IMG/VR virus record: IMGVR_UViG_2778261674_000006
Direction: 5' to 3' (one strand)
DNA from: a virus
Lineage: Duplodnaviria; Heunggongvirae; Uroviricota; Caudoviricetes
DNA length: 4,247 bases
Shown here one piece after another: positions 2,035 through 4,247 of the stretch. Position numbers and translations under genes: made by a program. The notes beneath the pieces are model-generated. The model had not been told where the DNA came from. It saw only the letters and a list, made by a program, of their open reading frames with translations, and made no database searches. The number at the start of each line of letters is the position of its first letter. Position 1 is the first letter of the stretch.

Positions 2035-2059
2035 ATAAAAAACCCAGCCGAAGCTGGGT
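2035..2059 (-). terminator. Intrinsic terminator downstream of the antirepressor gene and immediately upstream of the K ribosome-binding site
   Basis: Minus-strand reading: ACCCAGC-ttcg-GCTGGGT (2059..2042) followed by TTTTTTAT (2041..2034), then AGGAG and the ATG of K. This is a classic GC stem plus U-tract. Confidence 0.6.
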
Positions 2060-2077
2060 CATTTCGTTGGCAATCTG

Positions 2078-2998
2078 TTAGTAGTGATGCAGTGAAGGAG
2101 GTAATTCTTTGTTCTTAAGTCTTAGCCATGCAGAAAGATTCGTTGGTCCGTCTGGCTCATTAATATCAATATCTCGCGTGTGATTGATTAAAACGTCTCT
2201 CGCCATTCCAATAACATACGAGAACTCATGACCGTAGTCGTAGCATCTGCAGGAATAGTTCGATTGAATTTGCTTTAGCGCCGGATACAGTTCGCGGAAT
2301 AATGCCTGTGAGCGGTTGGCATAATCCCATAACCATACAAGGCTGTTTGCTTCTTTTGCAGAAAGCTCGTTGGTTTTCTTCTCTTGTTTTCCGATGAATT
2401 CGCCTTCAAGTGGAATACGAGCAGCAAGTGACAGTGCTTCGGTAAACTGCTCCTCACTGATTTCTTTGTACGAACATCCAAAATGGGATTTCAGTGACGA
2501 CCACATGGTGATCATCGCCTTCGCCTGTTTTTCTTTTGGCAGAGACTGACCGCGACTCATGACGAGTTGTTTAATAGCTTCCTGCTGTTCAGTGGTGATT
2601 TTCCCCAGCAATGCCTTTTTAGCTTTGCGCGGGTTAATCACATGGCCTTTAGTCCAGTACTCGTAGAGCACATCGTCACACTCTTCCTGATACTGGATTA
2701 CCTTCTCGCGGATTTCAGGGCGGACTTTGTTAGGACTGATGGTTTGGAGCCAACCATTCAGTTTACGCAAAGCAAGGCAAATCATGGTCTGCATACCGCC
2801 AACTGAAGGTATTGCGATTTCCACAATACCTTTAGCAAATCTTTGTTTTAACTTTGTAAACTGTGAAGCCCAATCCATACCCATTCCCTCAACGATAGGT
2901 TTCATTGGGGTGTACGGTTCGCCGTTGTGATTGACGACATAAAGCTCTGCGCCGTGGAATGGCACGTTGATAGTAGATACCGCTGTTGCTATACTCAT
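2078..2998 (-). CDS. ant: Phage antirepressor (Ant-like; the N-terminal region resembles the P22 antirepressor N-terminal domain family), 306 aa from the ATG at 2998
   Basis: ORF-track frame 2078..3052. I chose the start at 2998 (MSIATAVSTINVPFHGAELYVVNHNGEPYTPMKPIVEGMGMDWASQFTKL...) because AAGGAA (3012..3007) lies 8 nt upstream; the 3052 start adds 18 residues that overlap a terminator hairpin. The protein resembles antirepressors from enterobacterial prophages, and the gene sits directly downstream of an Arc-like gene as in P22 immI. Confidence 0.75.
   Translation of the reverse strand: MSIATAVSTINVPFHGAELYVVNHNGEPYTPMKPIVEGMGMDWASQFTKLKQRFAKGIVEIAIPSVGGMQTMICLALRKLNGWLQTISPNKVRPEIREKVIQYQEECDDVLYEYWTKGHVINPRKAKKALLGKITTEQQEAIKQLVMSRGQSLPKEKQAKAMITMWSSLKSHFGCSYKEISEEQFTEALSLAARIPLEGEFIGKQEKKTNELSAKEANSLVWLWDYANRSQALFRELYPALKQIQSNYSCRCYDYGHEFSYVIGMARDVLINHTRDIDINEPDGPTNLSAWLRLKNKELPPSLHHY
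2967..2995 (+). promoter_or_regulatory. Candidate sigma70 promoter for an antisense (sar-like) RNA: TTGATA -17 bp- TATACT
   Basis: -35 TTGATA at 2967..2972, a 17-bp spacer, and -10 TATACT at 2990..2995 on the plus strand, inside the 5' end of ant and pointing away from it. The predicted transcription start is near 3002. Confidence 0.4.
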
Positions 2999-3001
2999 TT
3001 C

Positions 3002-3071
3002 GTTAGTTCCTTGGAAGTTACTGACATAGAAGCCCGATTTGTGTTCGCGCACTGTCGGGCTTCGCTATTTT
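3002..3071 (+). ncRNA. sar: Candidate sar-like cis-antisense small RNA (~70 nt) complementary to the ant ribosome-binding site and the arc-ant spacer
   Basis: It is bounded upstream by the promoter above and downstream by a plus-strand intrinsic terminator: stem GAAGCCCGA (3029..3037) / TCGGGCTTC (3055..3063), a 17-nt loop, then GCTATTTTTAT (T-tract 3066..3071). The transcript would be antisense to the ant Shine-Dalgarno at 3007..3012. As I recall, P22 has a ~70-nt sar RNA in the same position. Confidence 0.35.
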
Positions 3072-3238
3072 TATGTCCTAGCATTCTTCTCTCCAATCAG
3101 TCCGTACACTTTTCTCAATTGATAAATAAGTTCCGTGTTGAACTGTCGACACTCTTTTTCTCCATTTCTTTCAATCGCCTTCCTTACATCCTCTGGGAAA
3201 CGAACCTTGCGTTGATACATGTCTTTTGCTTTTTCCAT
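3071..3238 (-). CDS. arc: Arc-like ribbon-helix-helix transcriptional repressor, 55 aa (not in the supplied ORF track)
   Basis: Manual translation of the minus strand from the ATG at 3238..3236 gives MEKAKDMYQRKVRFPEDVRKAIERNGEKECRQFNTELIYQLRKVYGLIGEKNART, ending at TAA 3073..3071. A strong ribosome-binding site AAGGAG (3249..3244) lies 5 nt upstream. The pattern (basic beta-strand RKVRFPEDV, then N-[ST]-E-[IL]-x-Y-Q) resembles P22 Arc (...FNLRWPREVLDLVRKVAEENGRSVNSEIYQRV...) as I recall it. Confidence 0.65.
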   Translation of the reverse strand: MEKAKDMYQRKVRFPEDVRKAIERNGEKECRQFNTELIYQLRKVYGLIGEKNART

Positions 3239-3255
3239 CTCCACTCCTTAAATAG

Positions 3256-3318
3256 CCTCACTGTGGGGCAATCAAAATTGTCACACCGTGCGTCATTGAA
3301 GTCAACCCCACCGTGGGG
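3256..3318. promoter_or_regulatory. Three candidate operator sites with a CACNGTG core, centred at 3262, 3287 and 3312 (exactly 25 bp apart)
   Basis: Site 1, 3256..3268: CCTCAC-t-GTGGGG (one mismatch). Site 2, 3281..3293: tcaCAC-c-GTGcgt (core only). Site 3, 3306..3318: CCCCAC-c-GTGGGG (perfect 6+1+6 palindrome). Sites 1 and 3 also share the direct repeat CACYGTGGGGCA. Sites 2 and 3 fall in the spacers of the two divergent promoters; site 1 lies between the predicted ant-operon start and its ribosome-binding site. Confidence 0.55.
3277..3305 (-). promoter_or_regulatory. Candidate promoter for the arc-ant operon: TTGACT -17 bp- (TGt)GACAAT, minus strand
   Basis: Minus-strand reading: -35 TTGACT (3305..3300), a 17-bp spacer, and -10 GACAAT (3282..3277) preceded by a TGn extended -10 motif. 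Site 2 lies in the spacer. Confidence 0.4.
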
Positions 3319-3324
3319 CATAAT
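3296..3324 (+). promoter_or_regulatory. Candidate promoter for the mnt-like gene: TTGAAG -17 bp- CATAAT, plus strand
   Basis: -35 TTGAAG (3296..3301), a 17-bp spacer containing the perfect palindrome (site 3), and -10 CATAAT (3319..3324). Its -35 overlaps the -35 of the divergent arc-ant promoter (3300..3305). Confidence 0.45.
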
Positions 3325-3361
3325 TTACTTATTGTGAATTTTTCCTGTTTGGACTAATGGT

Positions 3362-3736
3362 ATGAGTAGAGAAGACCCTCAACTTCGGATTAGGCTTCCT
3401 GTTGAATTAAAAAAAATAATTGAAGCGTCATCAAAACAAAATAATCGTTCTATGAATGCTGAGATTGTCACTCTGCTTGAGTTGGCGATTCGTGTTTGTC
3501 GTGATTTTGGGCCGGAGGATGGTCCTATCGTTCAGCAGTTTAAAGAACAACTAGATGCGATAAACAGAAAATATGATAAAAGCGAGCATGAAAAACTTAT
3601 ACCTCAACTTTTAGAAATCATAGAAAAACAGAAAAAACAAGTAGATAAACTTATTAGCATGGTTGAAAGATCAATTCCTCTTTCAGAGGAATATAAGCAG
3701 AAATATCTTGGTGATGACAACAAAAAACCCACCTGA
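3362..3736 (+). CDS. mnt: Mnt-like ribbon-helix-helix repressor with an extended C-terminal, probably coiled-coil, region; 124 aa
   Basis: ORF-track protein MSREDPQLRIRLPVELKKIIEASSKQNNRSMNAEIVTLLELAI... aligns by eye with P22 Mnt (MARDDPHFNFRMPMEVREKLKFRAEANGRSMNSELLQIVQDAL, from memory): M-x-R-[DE]-DP, R-[ML]-P-x-E-[VL], N-RSMN-[SA]-E-[LI]. The C-terminal ~70 residues are rich in K/E/Q/L with a heptad-like pattern. The gene is divergent from arc-ant. Confidence 0.78.
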   Translation: MSREDPQLRIRLPVELKKIIEASSKQNNRSMNAEIVTLLELAIRVCRDFGPEDGPIVQQFKEQLDAINRKYDKSEHEKLIPQLLEIIEKQKKQVDKLISMVERSIPLSEEYKQKYLGDDNKKPT

Positions 3737-3743
3737 TGGTGGG
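3722..3743 (-). terminator. Hairpin plus T-tract at the convergent L / mnt-like junction; terminator-like only for the minus (L) strand
   Basis: Minus-strand reading: CCCACC-atca-GGTGGG (3743..3728) followed by TTTTTTG (3727..3721), beginning 10 nt after the L stop codon. On the plus strand the hairpin is preceded, not followed, by the A/T run, so it is a poor terminator for the mnt-like transcript. The hairpin overlaps the last mnt-like codons and its stop (3734..3736). Confidence 0.45.
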
Positions 3744-3752
3744 CATAATCCA

Positions 3753-4247
3753 TTACTGCGAAAGCTTGTTAATGGAAAGGAAGCCGCCAAAGTTGCCGAC
3801 GTTATTGCGAAACTTACAGCCACTCAGGCATTTGCTGCATTTATCCTTCGTGATATCGGACGTTGGCTGGTCATATTCATCCGCGACTGCCGGACCGTTA
3901 TAACCGCACTCATCACCGCGATAGGTCCAGGTGCAGGTGTTGGCCAGCATGATACGTCCCGGAAAAACAGCGCCATCTGTTTCCGTCGGCGTGGACAGTA
4001 CAAAAGAGGCACTGACCGCGCTCAGTTCGCTGCACTGCTCGATGCGCCAGCGGCTGATCACCTCCTGCTCCGGATCGGCGTCGCTGTTTCCGTTGACGAA
4101 GTTCACCGCATCCAGAAAACGGGCATAAACCTTACGCCTGACCACCGTTCCGCCGACCAGACTCTGCAGGTCTTCCGCCATCCCGGTGACCATACCGTAC
4201 AGGTTAGAAACCGTCAGCGTGGGGCGCGTACTGGTGCCTTTGCCATT
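3753..4247 (-). CDS. L: Tail tip protein L, C-terminal ~164 aa; the 5' end lies beyond the window end
   Basis: ORF-track protein (from an internal Met) MVTGMAEDLQSLVGGTVVRRKVYARFLDAVNFVNGNSDADPEQEVISRWRIEQCSELS...CSKCLSGCKFRNNVGNFGGFLSINKLSQ matches lambda gpL as I recall it, including the Cys-rich C-terminus. The frame 3753..4193 is given in the track and appears to stay open up to 4247. Confidence 0.85.
   Translation of the reverse strand, partial: NGKGTSTRPTLTVSNLYGMVTGMAEDLQSLVGGTVVRRKVYARFLDAVNFVNGNSDADPEQEVISRWRIEQCSELSAVSASFVLSTPTETDGAVFPGRIMLANTCTWTYRGDECGYNGPAVADEYDQPTSDITKDKCSKCLSGCKFRNNVGNFGGFLSINKLSQ

Follow-up and report, generated by a model that had tools for sequence, protein, structure and literature searches.

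A 4247-bp stretch of the virus record IMGVR_UViG_2778261674_000006 (hereafter the window, to which all coordinates refer) belongs to the tail-tip region of a lambda-like prophage, and a foreign cassette has been inserted there between the lambda-type tail genes L and K. The cassette encodes an Mnt-like protein, an Arc-like protein and an antirepressor (Ant), and its control region is the 123-bp gap between the two small genes, arc-like and mnt-like. We consider it probable that positions 3254-3324 of this gap form the promoter-operator core of an immI-type antirepressor cassette, with operators for two ribbon-helix-helix (RHH) repressors. The immI region of phage P22 is the textbook source of Arc, Mnt and much of the knowledge on DNA recognition by beta-sheets, and, to our knowledge, the natural variation in the design of its operators has hardly been explored.

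The control region contains three palindromes with a CACNGTG core, a left one (CCTCACTGTGGGG), a middle one and a right one (CCCCACCGTGGGG), that we have named OL, OM and OR, respectively (Table 1). An initial annotation of this DNA had given their positions and centres, and all these statements about the sequence were correct, except that the middle element, reported as a 7-bp CAC-C-GTG core, extends in fact to an imperfect palindrome of 17 bp. The same annotation had proposed back-to-back divergent promoters with overlapping -35 hexamers, TTGAAG on the plus strand and TTGACT on the minus strand. Both were recovered by a consensus scan, the minus promoter as TTGACT-17-GACAAT with a TG extension (3305-3277), and their hexamers, which overlap at 3300-3301, are conserved. 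According to these hexamers, transcription is predicted to start at about 3270 for the arc-ant operon and at about 3331 for the mnt-like gene. The centre of OL would thus fall at about +9 of the arc-ant promoter, past the predicted start and ahead of the Shine-Dalgarno sequence of arc, AAGGAG (3244-3249). OM, centred at about -17, is contained in the spacer of the same promoter, and its left half doubles as the TG-extended -10 element. OR fills the spacer of the mnt-like promoter (centre at about -19) and adjoins the -35 hexamer of the arc-ant promoter.

The repetition of this motif exceeds what is expected by chance. The pattern CCYCACNGTGGGG, with up to two mismatches, has five matches versus 0.61 expected, a number that was reached in 1 out of 200 shuffles, and CACNGTG is found four times in the 4247 bp versus 1.32 expected, three of them within 57 bp. 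The outer sites OL and OR were detected by a repeat finder as a direct repeat (15 nt, 87%, spacing 50) and also as an inverted repeat. No further operator copies were found in the whole 51.5-kb prophage of an Escherichia coli genome that carries a 99.9% identical copy of the window, and such a motif, restricted to a single locus, fits local regulators.

The main evidence comes from the comparison with related loci, which were collected by protein-guided and pattern scans of IMG/VR (several hundred loci) plus one scan of species-representative genomes. After removing duplicates, 305 loci yielded 90 distinct variants of the region. In the species-representative scan the 40-bp core was found exact in 13 species, belonging to Proteus (two), Xenorhabdus, Kluyvera, Pluralibacter, Rouxiella, Yersinia pestis, Raoultella, Dryocola, Mixta and Pantoea (three). 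The per-column entropy is as low as 0.047 bits in OM, 0.12 in OR, 0.19 in the overlapping -35 hexamers and 0.39 in OL, and it amounts to 1.35 bits in the arc leader, 1.40 in the spacer between OL and OM, 1.21 in the mnt leader and 0.53-0.58 in the flanking coding sequences. OM is identical in 79 of the 90 variants. The arms of OR (CCCCAC/GTGGGG) are fixed in 83 of them, with a centre base that can be C (59), G (23), A (5) or T (3). OL is present in 89 variants, missing only in one deletion derivative; it is usually degenerate in one half (GTGAGG, GTGAGA, CCTCAC, CCTCAA), i.e., it is conserved but weaker than OM and OR, and its centre base is also free (C 60, G 15, T 13, A 2). This result demonstrates that strong purifying selection acts on the three palindromes and on the promoter hexamers across the 90 variants. 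Fixed arms with a free centre, placed in a promoter spacer amid scrambled DNA, are the signature of a putative dyad-symmetric protein site rather than of a promoter element; the symmetry and the conservation are those that sites for paired RHH dimers would show.

It is hardly credible, on the other hand, that the palindromes are not operators at all, being either chance or hitch-hiking features of a recently spread segment or sequences kept only as part of the promoters. A perfect 6+1+6 palindrome is certainly expected by chance about once per 4 kb, and promoter-like matches alone are not above chance (4 versus 2.3 expected in 1 kb), so that the support for the promoters comes from their conservation and not from an enrichment in the hexamer scan. 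However, the heavy divergence of the adjacent spacers and of the synonymous sites in the flanking genes contrasts with arms that do not vary around free centres; OR lies in a promoter spacer, which is normally unconstrained; the block is identical across hosts of very different base composition; and the motif, with three copies in 57 bp, is absent from the rest of the 51 kb. Judging from this comparison, neither promoter constraint nor recent spread would explain the footprint.

The initial annotation had also placed the three centres exactly 25 bp apart. This spacing holds between OM and OR, which are separated by 25 bp in 89 of the 90 variants because both lie in one near-invariant block of 48 bp, but it does not hold between OL and OM, whose distance is 26 bp in 41 variants, 24 bp in 39, 25 bp in 5 (the window included) and 27 bp in 4. 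Therefore, the equal phasing of the window is incidental, and a 25-bp helical phasing was rejected as a design rule. What is conserved instead is the placement of OL at about +8 to +11 of the ant transcript, the distance between OL and OR ranging from 49 to 52 bp among the variants.

Regarding the promoters, the -35 hexamer of the arc-ant promoter (Pant-like) is TTGACA in 57 variants and TTGACT in 31, and its extended -10 element is TGTGACACT in 57 and TGTGACAAT in 31. The mnt-like promoter (Pmnt-like) has the -10 hexamer CATAAT in 78 of the 90 variants and CATACT in 11, with a -35 hexamer of the form TTG[A/C][A/T]G in all 90. The only freely variable bases of the invariant core are those at 3299-3300 (AA, CT or AT), located in the zone where the -35 hexamers overlap, and changes at these bases act on the two promoters in opposite directions. 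Across the variants, TTGACA tends to pair with the weaker -10 hexamer GACACT (3277-3282), and TTGACT with GACAAT, suggesting a compensatory tuning, part of which may be due to shared ancestry. A moderately conserved motif, TTTACTTATTGTGAATTTTT (3325-3345, plus strand), opens the predicted mnt leader in most, but not all, of the variants. Isolated matches to CCCCACNGTGGGGCATA in four unrelated viral contigs (L208, L210, L230 and L285), situated within or beside unrelated coding sequences and with no RHH gene in the vicinity, were discarded as chance hits.

The two small proteins encoded on either side of the control region were taken for RHH proteins in the initial annotation, and Pfam, structure matches and alignments confirmed that they are homologues of P22 Mnt and Arc. 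The Mnt-like protein matches the Pfam Arc family (PF03869) with 30.6 bits (cut-off 20.4) and is labelled in RefSeq as "Arc family DNA-binding protein". Of the solved structures, P22 Mnt is the one that it matches best (1MNT, E = 0.0015, residues 3-43), with 33% identity over 43 aa. No similarity to P22 Mnt was found past residue 43, so the protein contains no homologue of the P22 tetramerisation domain; a single-sequence AlphaFold2 model is helical, with low confidence (predicted local distance difference test, pLDDT, 55). The Arc-like protein alone scores 19.1 bits against PF03869, just under the cut-off, and 7 of its 15 relatives match this family at E <= 0.01. A profile built from these 15 relatives retrieves the P22 Arc structures with E = 1.4e-4 (residues 1-40), better than Mnt (0.011), and the identity with P22 Arc is 33% over 40 aa. 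Ant shares 56% identity with P22 Ant (E = 4e-119). In the alignments, Arg2 and Arg10 of P22 Mnt are kept in the Mnt-like protein, His6 is replaced by Gln and Asn8 by Arg. The DNA-facing residues of the beta-strand, which are Q-N-R in P22 Arc and H-N-R in P22 Mnt, are here Q-K-R in the Arc-like protein and Q-R-R in the Mnt-like protein, the latter with a conserved N-terminal Arg.

In the mechanism that we propose, the mnt-like gene on one side and the arc-like, sar-like and ant genes on the other would make up an insulated "moron" between the tail genes L and K. Two sigma-70 promoters would fire in opposite directions from the overlapping -35 hexamers, and three dyad sites with the common half-site GTGnGnCA would serve as operators for the Mnt-like and Arc-like RHH proteins. 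The Mnt-like protein may bind the G-rich palindromes, OR and OL, as a dimer of dimers. OR would be its strongest and best-conserved site, and its occupancy would lead both to the negative autoregulation of mnt and to the occlusion of both -35 elements. The weaker OL lies at +9 of the ant operon and, like the mnt operator of P22, would provide a further block to arc-ant transcription. Produced from the ant operon, the Arc-like protein would bind OM over the extended -10 element and shut its own operon down after a burst, and a sar-like antisense RNA would block ant translation. As a net result, ant would be silent in the lysogen and transiently expressed on infection or when the Mnt-like protein is lost. 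The transcription starts, the binding of the proteins, their assignment to the sites and their oligomeric state are the parts of this model that we infer. The initial annotation had seen in the region a compact bistable switch, a term against which P22 argues by analogy, given that the Arc arm of the P22 system is self-limiting rather than a stable state.

The most likely assignment of the two proteins to the sites is the one given above, i.e., the Mnt-like protein on the G-rich sites and the Arc-like protein on OM. It is favoured by the positions of the sites, which are homologous to those of the P22 operators, and by a slightly better agreement of the P22 mnt operator with the G-rich half-site. 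Position +4 of the half-site is a purine in OR (168 of 178 half-sites) and in most OL, and a pyrimidine in OM (178 of 180), and this split parallels the single Arg/Lys difference between the triads of the two proteins. In addition, one locus (L075, 1900-2460) carries a lone mnt-like gene of 151 aa accompanied by OM and OR, lacking the arc-like gene, ant and OL, and having mutated ant promoter hexamers; OR is kept there at 12 of 13 positions in the promoter of the mnt-like gene. This locus may be either a deletion remnant or a stand-alone autoregulated repressor.

Besides the lack of enrichment in promoter-like matches mentioned above, several observations weigh against the assignment that we favour or against the reading as a whole. 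The classes of sites are blurred in several lineages while the proteins are unchanged: OL of Mixta is GTCACAC-G-GTGTGAC, of the middle type; OL of Xenorhabdus and of locus L303 is a hybrid; OL of the distant relative L293 is TGCCGCAC-T-GTGCGGCA; and OM has a right half of the OR type in three variants. The only sequenced phage that contains the region, TL-2011b, has a degenerate OR. The DNA-facing residues of the two proteins are nearly identical, and a shared recognition is possible. No signal of covariation was found between the beta-strand residues of the repressors and the operator bases (77 distinct Mnt-like proteins and the Arc-like set), because neither protein varies in its DNA-facing residues within the family. 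The first 13 residues of the Mnt-like protein, MSREDPQLRIRLP, are the same in 77 out of 77 distinct proteins, an invariance that is partly built into the selection, as these proteins were recovered with a regular expression anchored on that N-terminus; the Arc-like triad changes only once, by K11R, in the TL-2011b lineage. The action of the Mnt-like protein as a tetramer is an assumption, its C-terminal part being unrelated to the P22 Mnt domain. Finally, the favoured reading derives from sequence comparison.

Some of these observations would be accommodated by a shared operator code, in which both RHH proteins read GTGnGnCA at all three sites with different orders of affinity, giving a graded control like that of the lambda OR region instead of the P22 scheme, in which each protein has an operator to itself. 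The two triads differ at a single residue, all six half-sites agree at positions +1 to +3, +5, +7 and +8, and OL is of the OR type, of the OM type or a hybrid depending on the lineage while the proteins do not change. Moreover, the allele found in the Shiga toxin (Stx) phages of E. coli O157, described below, pairs two RHH proteins of one triad (K-N-R) with one family of repeats (GGTGCC). However, the P22 triads are also nearly identical and yet the operators annotated in the P22 record are unrelated; therefore, similar triads do not predict shared sites. In this respect, the 1989 work of Knight and Sauer reportedly placed the specificity of Arc and Mnt in their N-terminal residues. The great stability of the +4 split also speaks against a common code, and we regard it as a serious but unlikely alternative.

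A second possibility is that all three palindromes serve the Mnt-like protein only, perhaps with looping between OL and OR, and that the Arc-like protein acts elsewhere or does not act on DNA in this region. In agreement with it, similarity to the core of the P22 mnt operator is seen in all three sites and similarity to the P22 arc operator in none, the distance between OL and OR is close to five helical turns, and L075 keeps OM and OR beside its lone mnt-like gene. Nevertheless, OM stands precisely where P22 has its arc operator, no other conserved dyad is available to the Arc-like protein in the near-invariant block of 48 bp, and L075, with mutations already present in its ant promoter, may be what is left after a recent deletion. 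A single repressor is thus rather improbable.

The reverse assignment, with the Arc-like protein on the outer G-rich palindromes and the Mnt-like protein on OM, finds some support in two lineages. In that of TL-2011b, the change K11R gives the Arc-like protein a Q-R-R triad, and it goes together with a perfect OL (CCCCACnGTGGGG) and a degenerate OR. In L293, diverged OL and OM sites accompany a diverged N-terminus of the Arc-like protein, with OR and the strand of the Mnt-like protein unchanged, but this pattern argues equally well that OR belongs to the Mnt-like protein. Furthermore, OR lies in the mnt promoter and survives in L075, where only mnt is left, and the P22 mnt operator agrees with the G-rich half-site at 5 of 8 positions but with the half-sites of OM at 4 of 8. 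For these reasons, the reverse assignment appears highly improbable, and we retain the Mnt-like protein on OR and OL and the Arc-like protein on OM.

Table 1. Features of the cassette and its control region in the window.
Feature	Position	Strand	Description	Basis
Candidate left operator OL	3254..3270	strand-neutral	13-bp core CCTCAC-T-GTGGGG at 3256-3268, centre 3262	dyad and conservation
Candidate middle operator OM	3279..3295		17-bp imperfect palindrome TGTCACAC-C-GTGCGTCA; core CACCGTG at 3284-3290, centre 3287	dyad and conservation
Candidate right operator OR	3304..3320		perfect 13-bp palindrome CCCCAC-C-GTGGGG at 3306-3318, centre 3312	dyad and conservation
Predicted arc-ant promoter (Pant-like)	3277..3305	-	-35 TTGACT (3305..3300), 17-bp spacer, TG-extended -10 TGTGACAAT (3285..3277)	consensus scan
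Predicted mnt-like promoter (Pmnt-like)	3296..3324	+	-35 TTGAAG (3296-3301), 17-bp spacer, -10 CATAAT (3319-3324)	consensus scan
mnt-like repressor gene	3362-3736	+	124 aa; N-terminal RHH domain and helical C-terminal region unrelated to P22 Mnt	
arc-like repressor gene	3071-3238	-	55 aa; first gene of the ant operon	
Antirepressor gene ant	2078-2998	-	306 aa; Pfam P22_AR_N (E = 1e-44) and P22_AR_C (E = 4e-29)	
sar-like antisense RNA unit	2967..3072	+	promoter 2967-2995, RNA about 3002-3072	
Intrinsic terminator after ant	2041..2060	-	just upstream of tail gene K; 8-bp stem GACCCAGC/GCTGGGTT, then TTTTAT; cassette boundary	
Hairpin and T run between tail gene L and the 3' end of mnt	3727..3744	-	mnt stop codon in the loop; other cassette boundary	
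Minor tail protein L gene	3753-4193	-	PF05100	

The cassette is embedded in tail genes that are all encoded on the minus strand: the window contains the 5' part of J, the assembly gene I (PF06805), K (JAB and NlpC/P60 domains) and L. Intrinsic terminators on the strand of the late operon bracket the cassette, one after L and the other after ant. Many Mnt-like proteins end in ...KKPT, which is encoded right at the L-side junction, and O157 Stx phages, despite their different repressor allele, have this junction (...KKPT-stop-hairpin) with 95-100% identity, which marks a recombination boundary inside the last mnt codons.

The sar-like unit has a promoter (TTGATA-17-TATACT with a TG extension; 10 of 12 consensus positions) located inside the 5' end of ant. 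The RNA, predicted to be about 70 nt long, has a two-hairpin fold (-28.3 kcal/mol, z = -4.7). The first hairpin is complementary to the ribosome-binding site of ant, and the second one (3029-3063), followed by a T run, constitutes a terminator that extends to the stop codon of arc. The same arrangement of two hairpins is seen in P22 sar, which has blocks of sequence in common with the RNA of the window. The unit is kept in 32 variants, whatever the cargo gene, with terminator stems that differ in sequence and yet still pair. When the Rfam sar family (RF00262) was compared with the window copy, it aligned over its full length (3002-3066, plus strand) with 15.6 bits and E = 0.79, below the gathering threshold of 43 bits, and an Rfam scan of the whole window gave no match at E <= 1. 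P22 sar, used as a control, reached 97.8 bits, and the sequence at the equivalent position of a relative (L111) reached 59.4 bits, i.e., over the threshold. Judged by position, promoter and fold, the RNA of the window is a putative diverged homologue of sar that falls below the score threshold of the family.

The related loci show which parts of the cassette are exchanged. In about half of the loci (L085-L164), the region downstream of the arc-like gene encodes an Ant of the P22_AR type, and in the remaining ones it encodes proteins that resemble Bro-N-type antirepressors, with mosaic C-termini, as judged by eye only. The arc-like gene, the sar-like unit and the operator core that precede this exchangeable cargo are the same in all cases. 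Likewise, at least six C-terminal classes, unrelated to one another, are joined to the invariant N-terminal domain of the Mnt-like protein, giving proteins of 86-152 aa in total (loci L005-L317), and none of these classes has a Pfam match.

Among 50,697 phage records, the window allele was found only in TL-2011b. The lineage of this phage (L163, L164 and L299-L317) is characterized by the degenerate OR (GCACAC-G-GTGAGG), the perfect OL, a CATACT -10 hexamer and the change K11R in the Arc-like protein. The GenBank record of TL-2011b (L002, 3300-3345) has a +1 frameshift (GGG for GG) early in the mnt-like gene. This apparent pseudogene was rejected as evidence on the ownership of the sites, since the frameshift is present only in that record and in identical contigs, and the gene is intact in 17 other contigs. 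Three records of a plasmid collection also contain the window allele, one of them 5.4 Mb in size and probably a chromosome. The 99.9% identical copy of the window mentioned above belongs to a dusA-integrated prophage of E. coli CFSAN018748 (L178/L179), annotated in RefSeq with the same genes. This prophage looks defective or poorly assembled: its small terminase gene contains an IS66-family element, and the annotation gives frameshifts in several head genes. Two further antirepressor-type genes (KilAC and P22AR C-terminal) are present in its nin region, and it encodes a LexA-family cI repressor.

Antirepressor cassettes decide between silence and induction of their own prophage and of co-resident prophages with sensitive repressors. 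It is conceivable, albeit doubtful at this stage, that this cassette represents a portable, plug-and-play induction switch, made of a shared core, an exchangeable output and an exchangeable C-terminus of the Mnt-like protein. If this were true, a near-invariant 48-bp core would be read by two RHH repressors through one code, GTGnGnCA, the purine or pyrimidine at +/-4 setting the winning protein at each site, a logic like that of lambda OR but built with beta-sheet readers. The output gene could then be swapped between P22-type Ant and Bro-N-type antirepressors, and the C-terminal classes may set the oligomerisation or sense signals, wiring one switch to different cues. If the simple P22-like reading holds, our results would be a useful but incremental addition. 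The allele offers a natural experiment, with three related operators of graded, lineage-specific strength, repressors that differ at one DNA-facing residue, and 90 variants. It is also a suitable system to study how RHH proteins partition among similar sites and how divergent promoters are tuned through the two variable bases that both -35 hexamers have in common.

The closest known counterpart in the same genomic position is a sister allele that occupies the K-L slot in Shiga-toxin phages. The O157:H7 Stx phages (Stx2a_WGPS8 gp50-52, phage 2851 and YYZ-2008) contain there a cassette with the same gene order and the same junctions, i.e., ...KKPT-stop-hairpin by L and the terminator by K. Its Ant is 87% identical to that of the window, with about 91% DNA identity in the 3' half, but its Arc-like and Mnt-like proteins correspond to a different allele, the latter being 36% identical in the RHH domain only. 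Both RHH proteins of this allele have the DNA-facing triad K-N-R. The intergenic region (L003 2090-2197, Stx2a_WGPS8) contains GGTGCC/GGCACC repeats and no CACnGTG palindromes, and no convincing promoter hexamers were recognized by eye in it. The O157 allele presumably has a different immunity specificity. In 5426 complete E. coli genomes it is present in about 300, versus 2 for the window allele, both of them from swine.

The P22 immI region, whose layout and operator positions were taken from the annotated P22 record, shares with this cassette the order and orientation of the genes (mnt, divergent arc, sar, ant), the homology of Mnt, Arc and Ant at the identities given above (33%, 33% and 56%), and an antisense RNA of the sar shape that begins a short way upstream of the start codon of ant and runs to the arc stop. 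In P22, the mnt operator, GGTCCACGGTGGACC, has its centre at +9 of Pant, as OL does here, and it has a 9-bp core, CCACGGTGG, in common with the G-rich palindromes OL and OR, the half-sites GTGGGGCA and GTGGACCT agreeing at 5 of 8 positions. The P22 arc operator is a 21-bp sequence, ATGATAGAAGCACTCTACTAT, placed between the -35 and -10 elements of Pant and also over Pmnt, with its centre at -20 of Pant and -17 of Pmnt. OM, at -17, occupies the equivalent slot, but its sequence is unrelated and it does not cover the mnt promoter hexamers.

The architecture of the control region differs in several other aspects. The three candidate operators of the window belong to one sequence family, whereas the two of P22 are unrelated. 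The P22 promoters overlap fully, with each -35 over the -10 of the other and starts about 37 bp apart; those of the window overlap only at their -35 hexamers, with predicted starts about 61 bp apart. In effect, the two promoters would have been pulled about 25 bp apart with respect to P22, each one with its own operator in the spacer. A perfect palindrome such as OR, filling the spacer of the mnt promoter, has no counterpart in P22, and it predicts a direct negative autoregulation. The Mnt-like protein itself, with its 124 aa and unrelated C-terminal part, also departs from P22 Mnt. The description of the region as analogous to but not identical with the P22 operators, made in the initial annotation, is therefore well borne out, in that the gene order and layout are the same and the operator and promoter architecture is different.

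Both cassettes are insulated morons in a late operon, that of P22 located between gene 16 and the tailspike gene and this one between the tail genes L and K of a lambda-like phage. In P22-like phages, such as epsilon34, CUS-3, HK620 and others, a variable "ant moron" has been described that often contains mnt, arc and ant (Villafane et al., 2008; PMC2629481). The cassette resembles it in being an independently transcribed insertion in a late operon, with high genetic flux and partial or degraded versions (PMC2629481). That paper covers the gene content of the moron, not the operator and promoter architecture of this allele, and full-text literature searches, which returned accounts of P22 immI and of this moron, gave no description of the operators or promoters of this allele. 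Taken together, the cassette is a new architectural variant of the immI-type switch and not a new kind of system.

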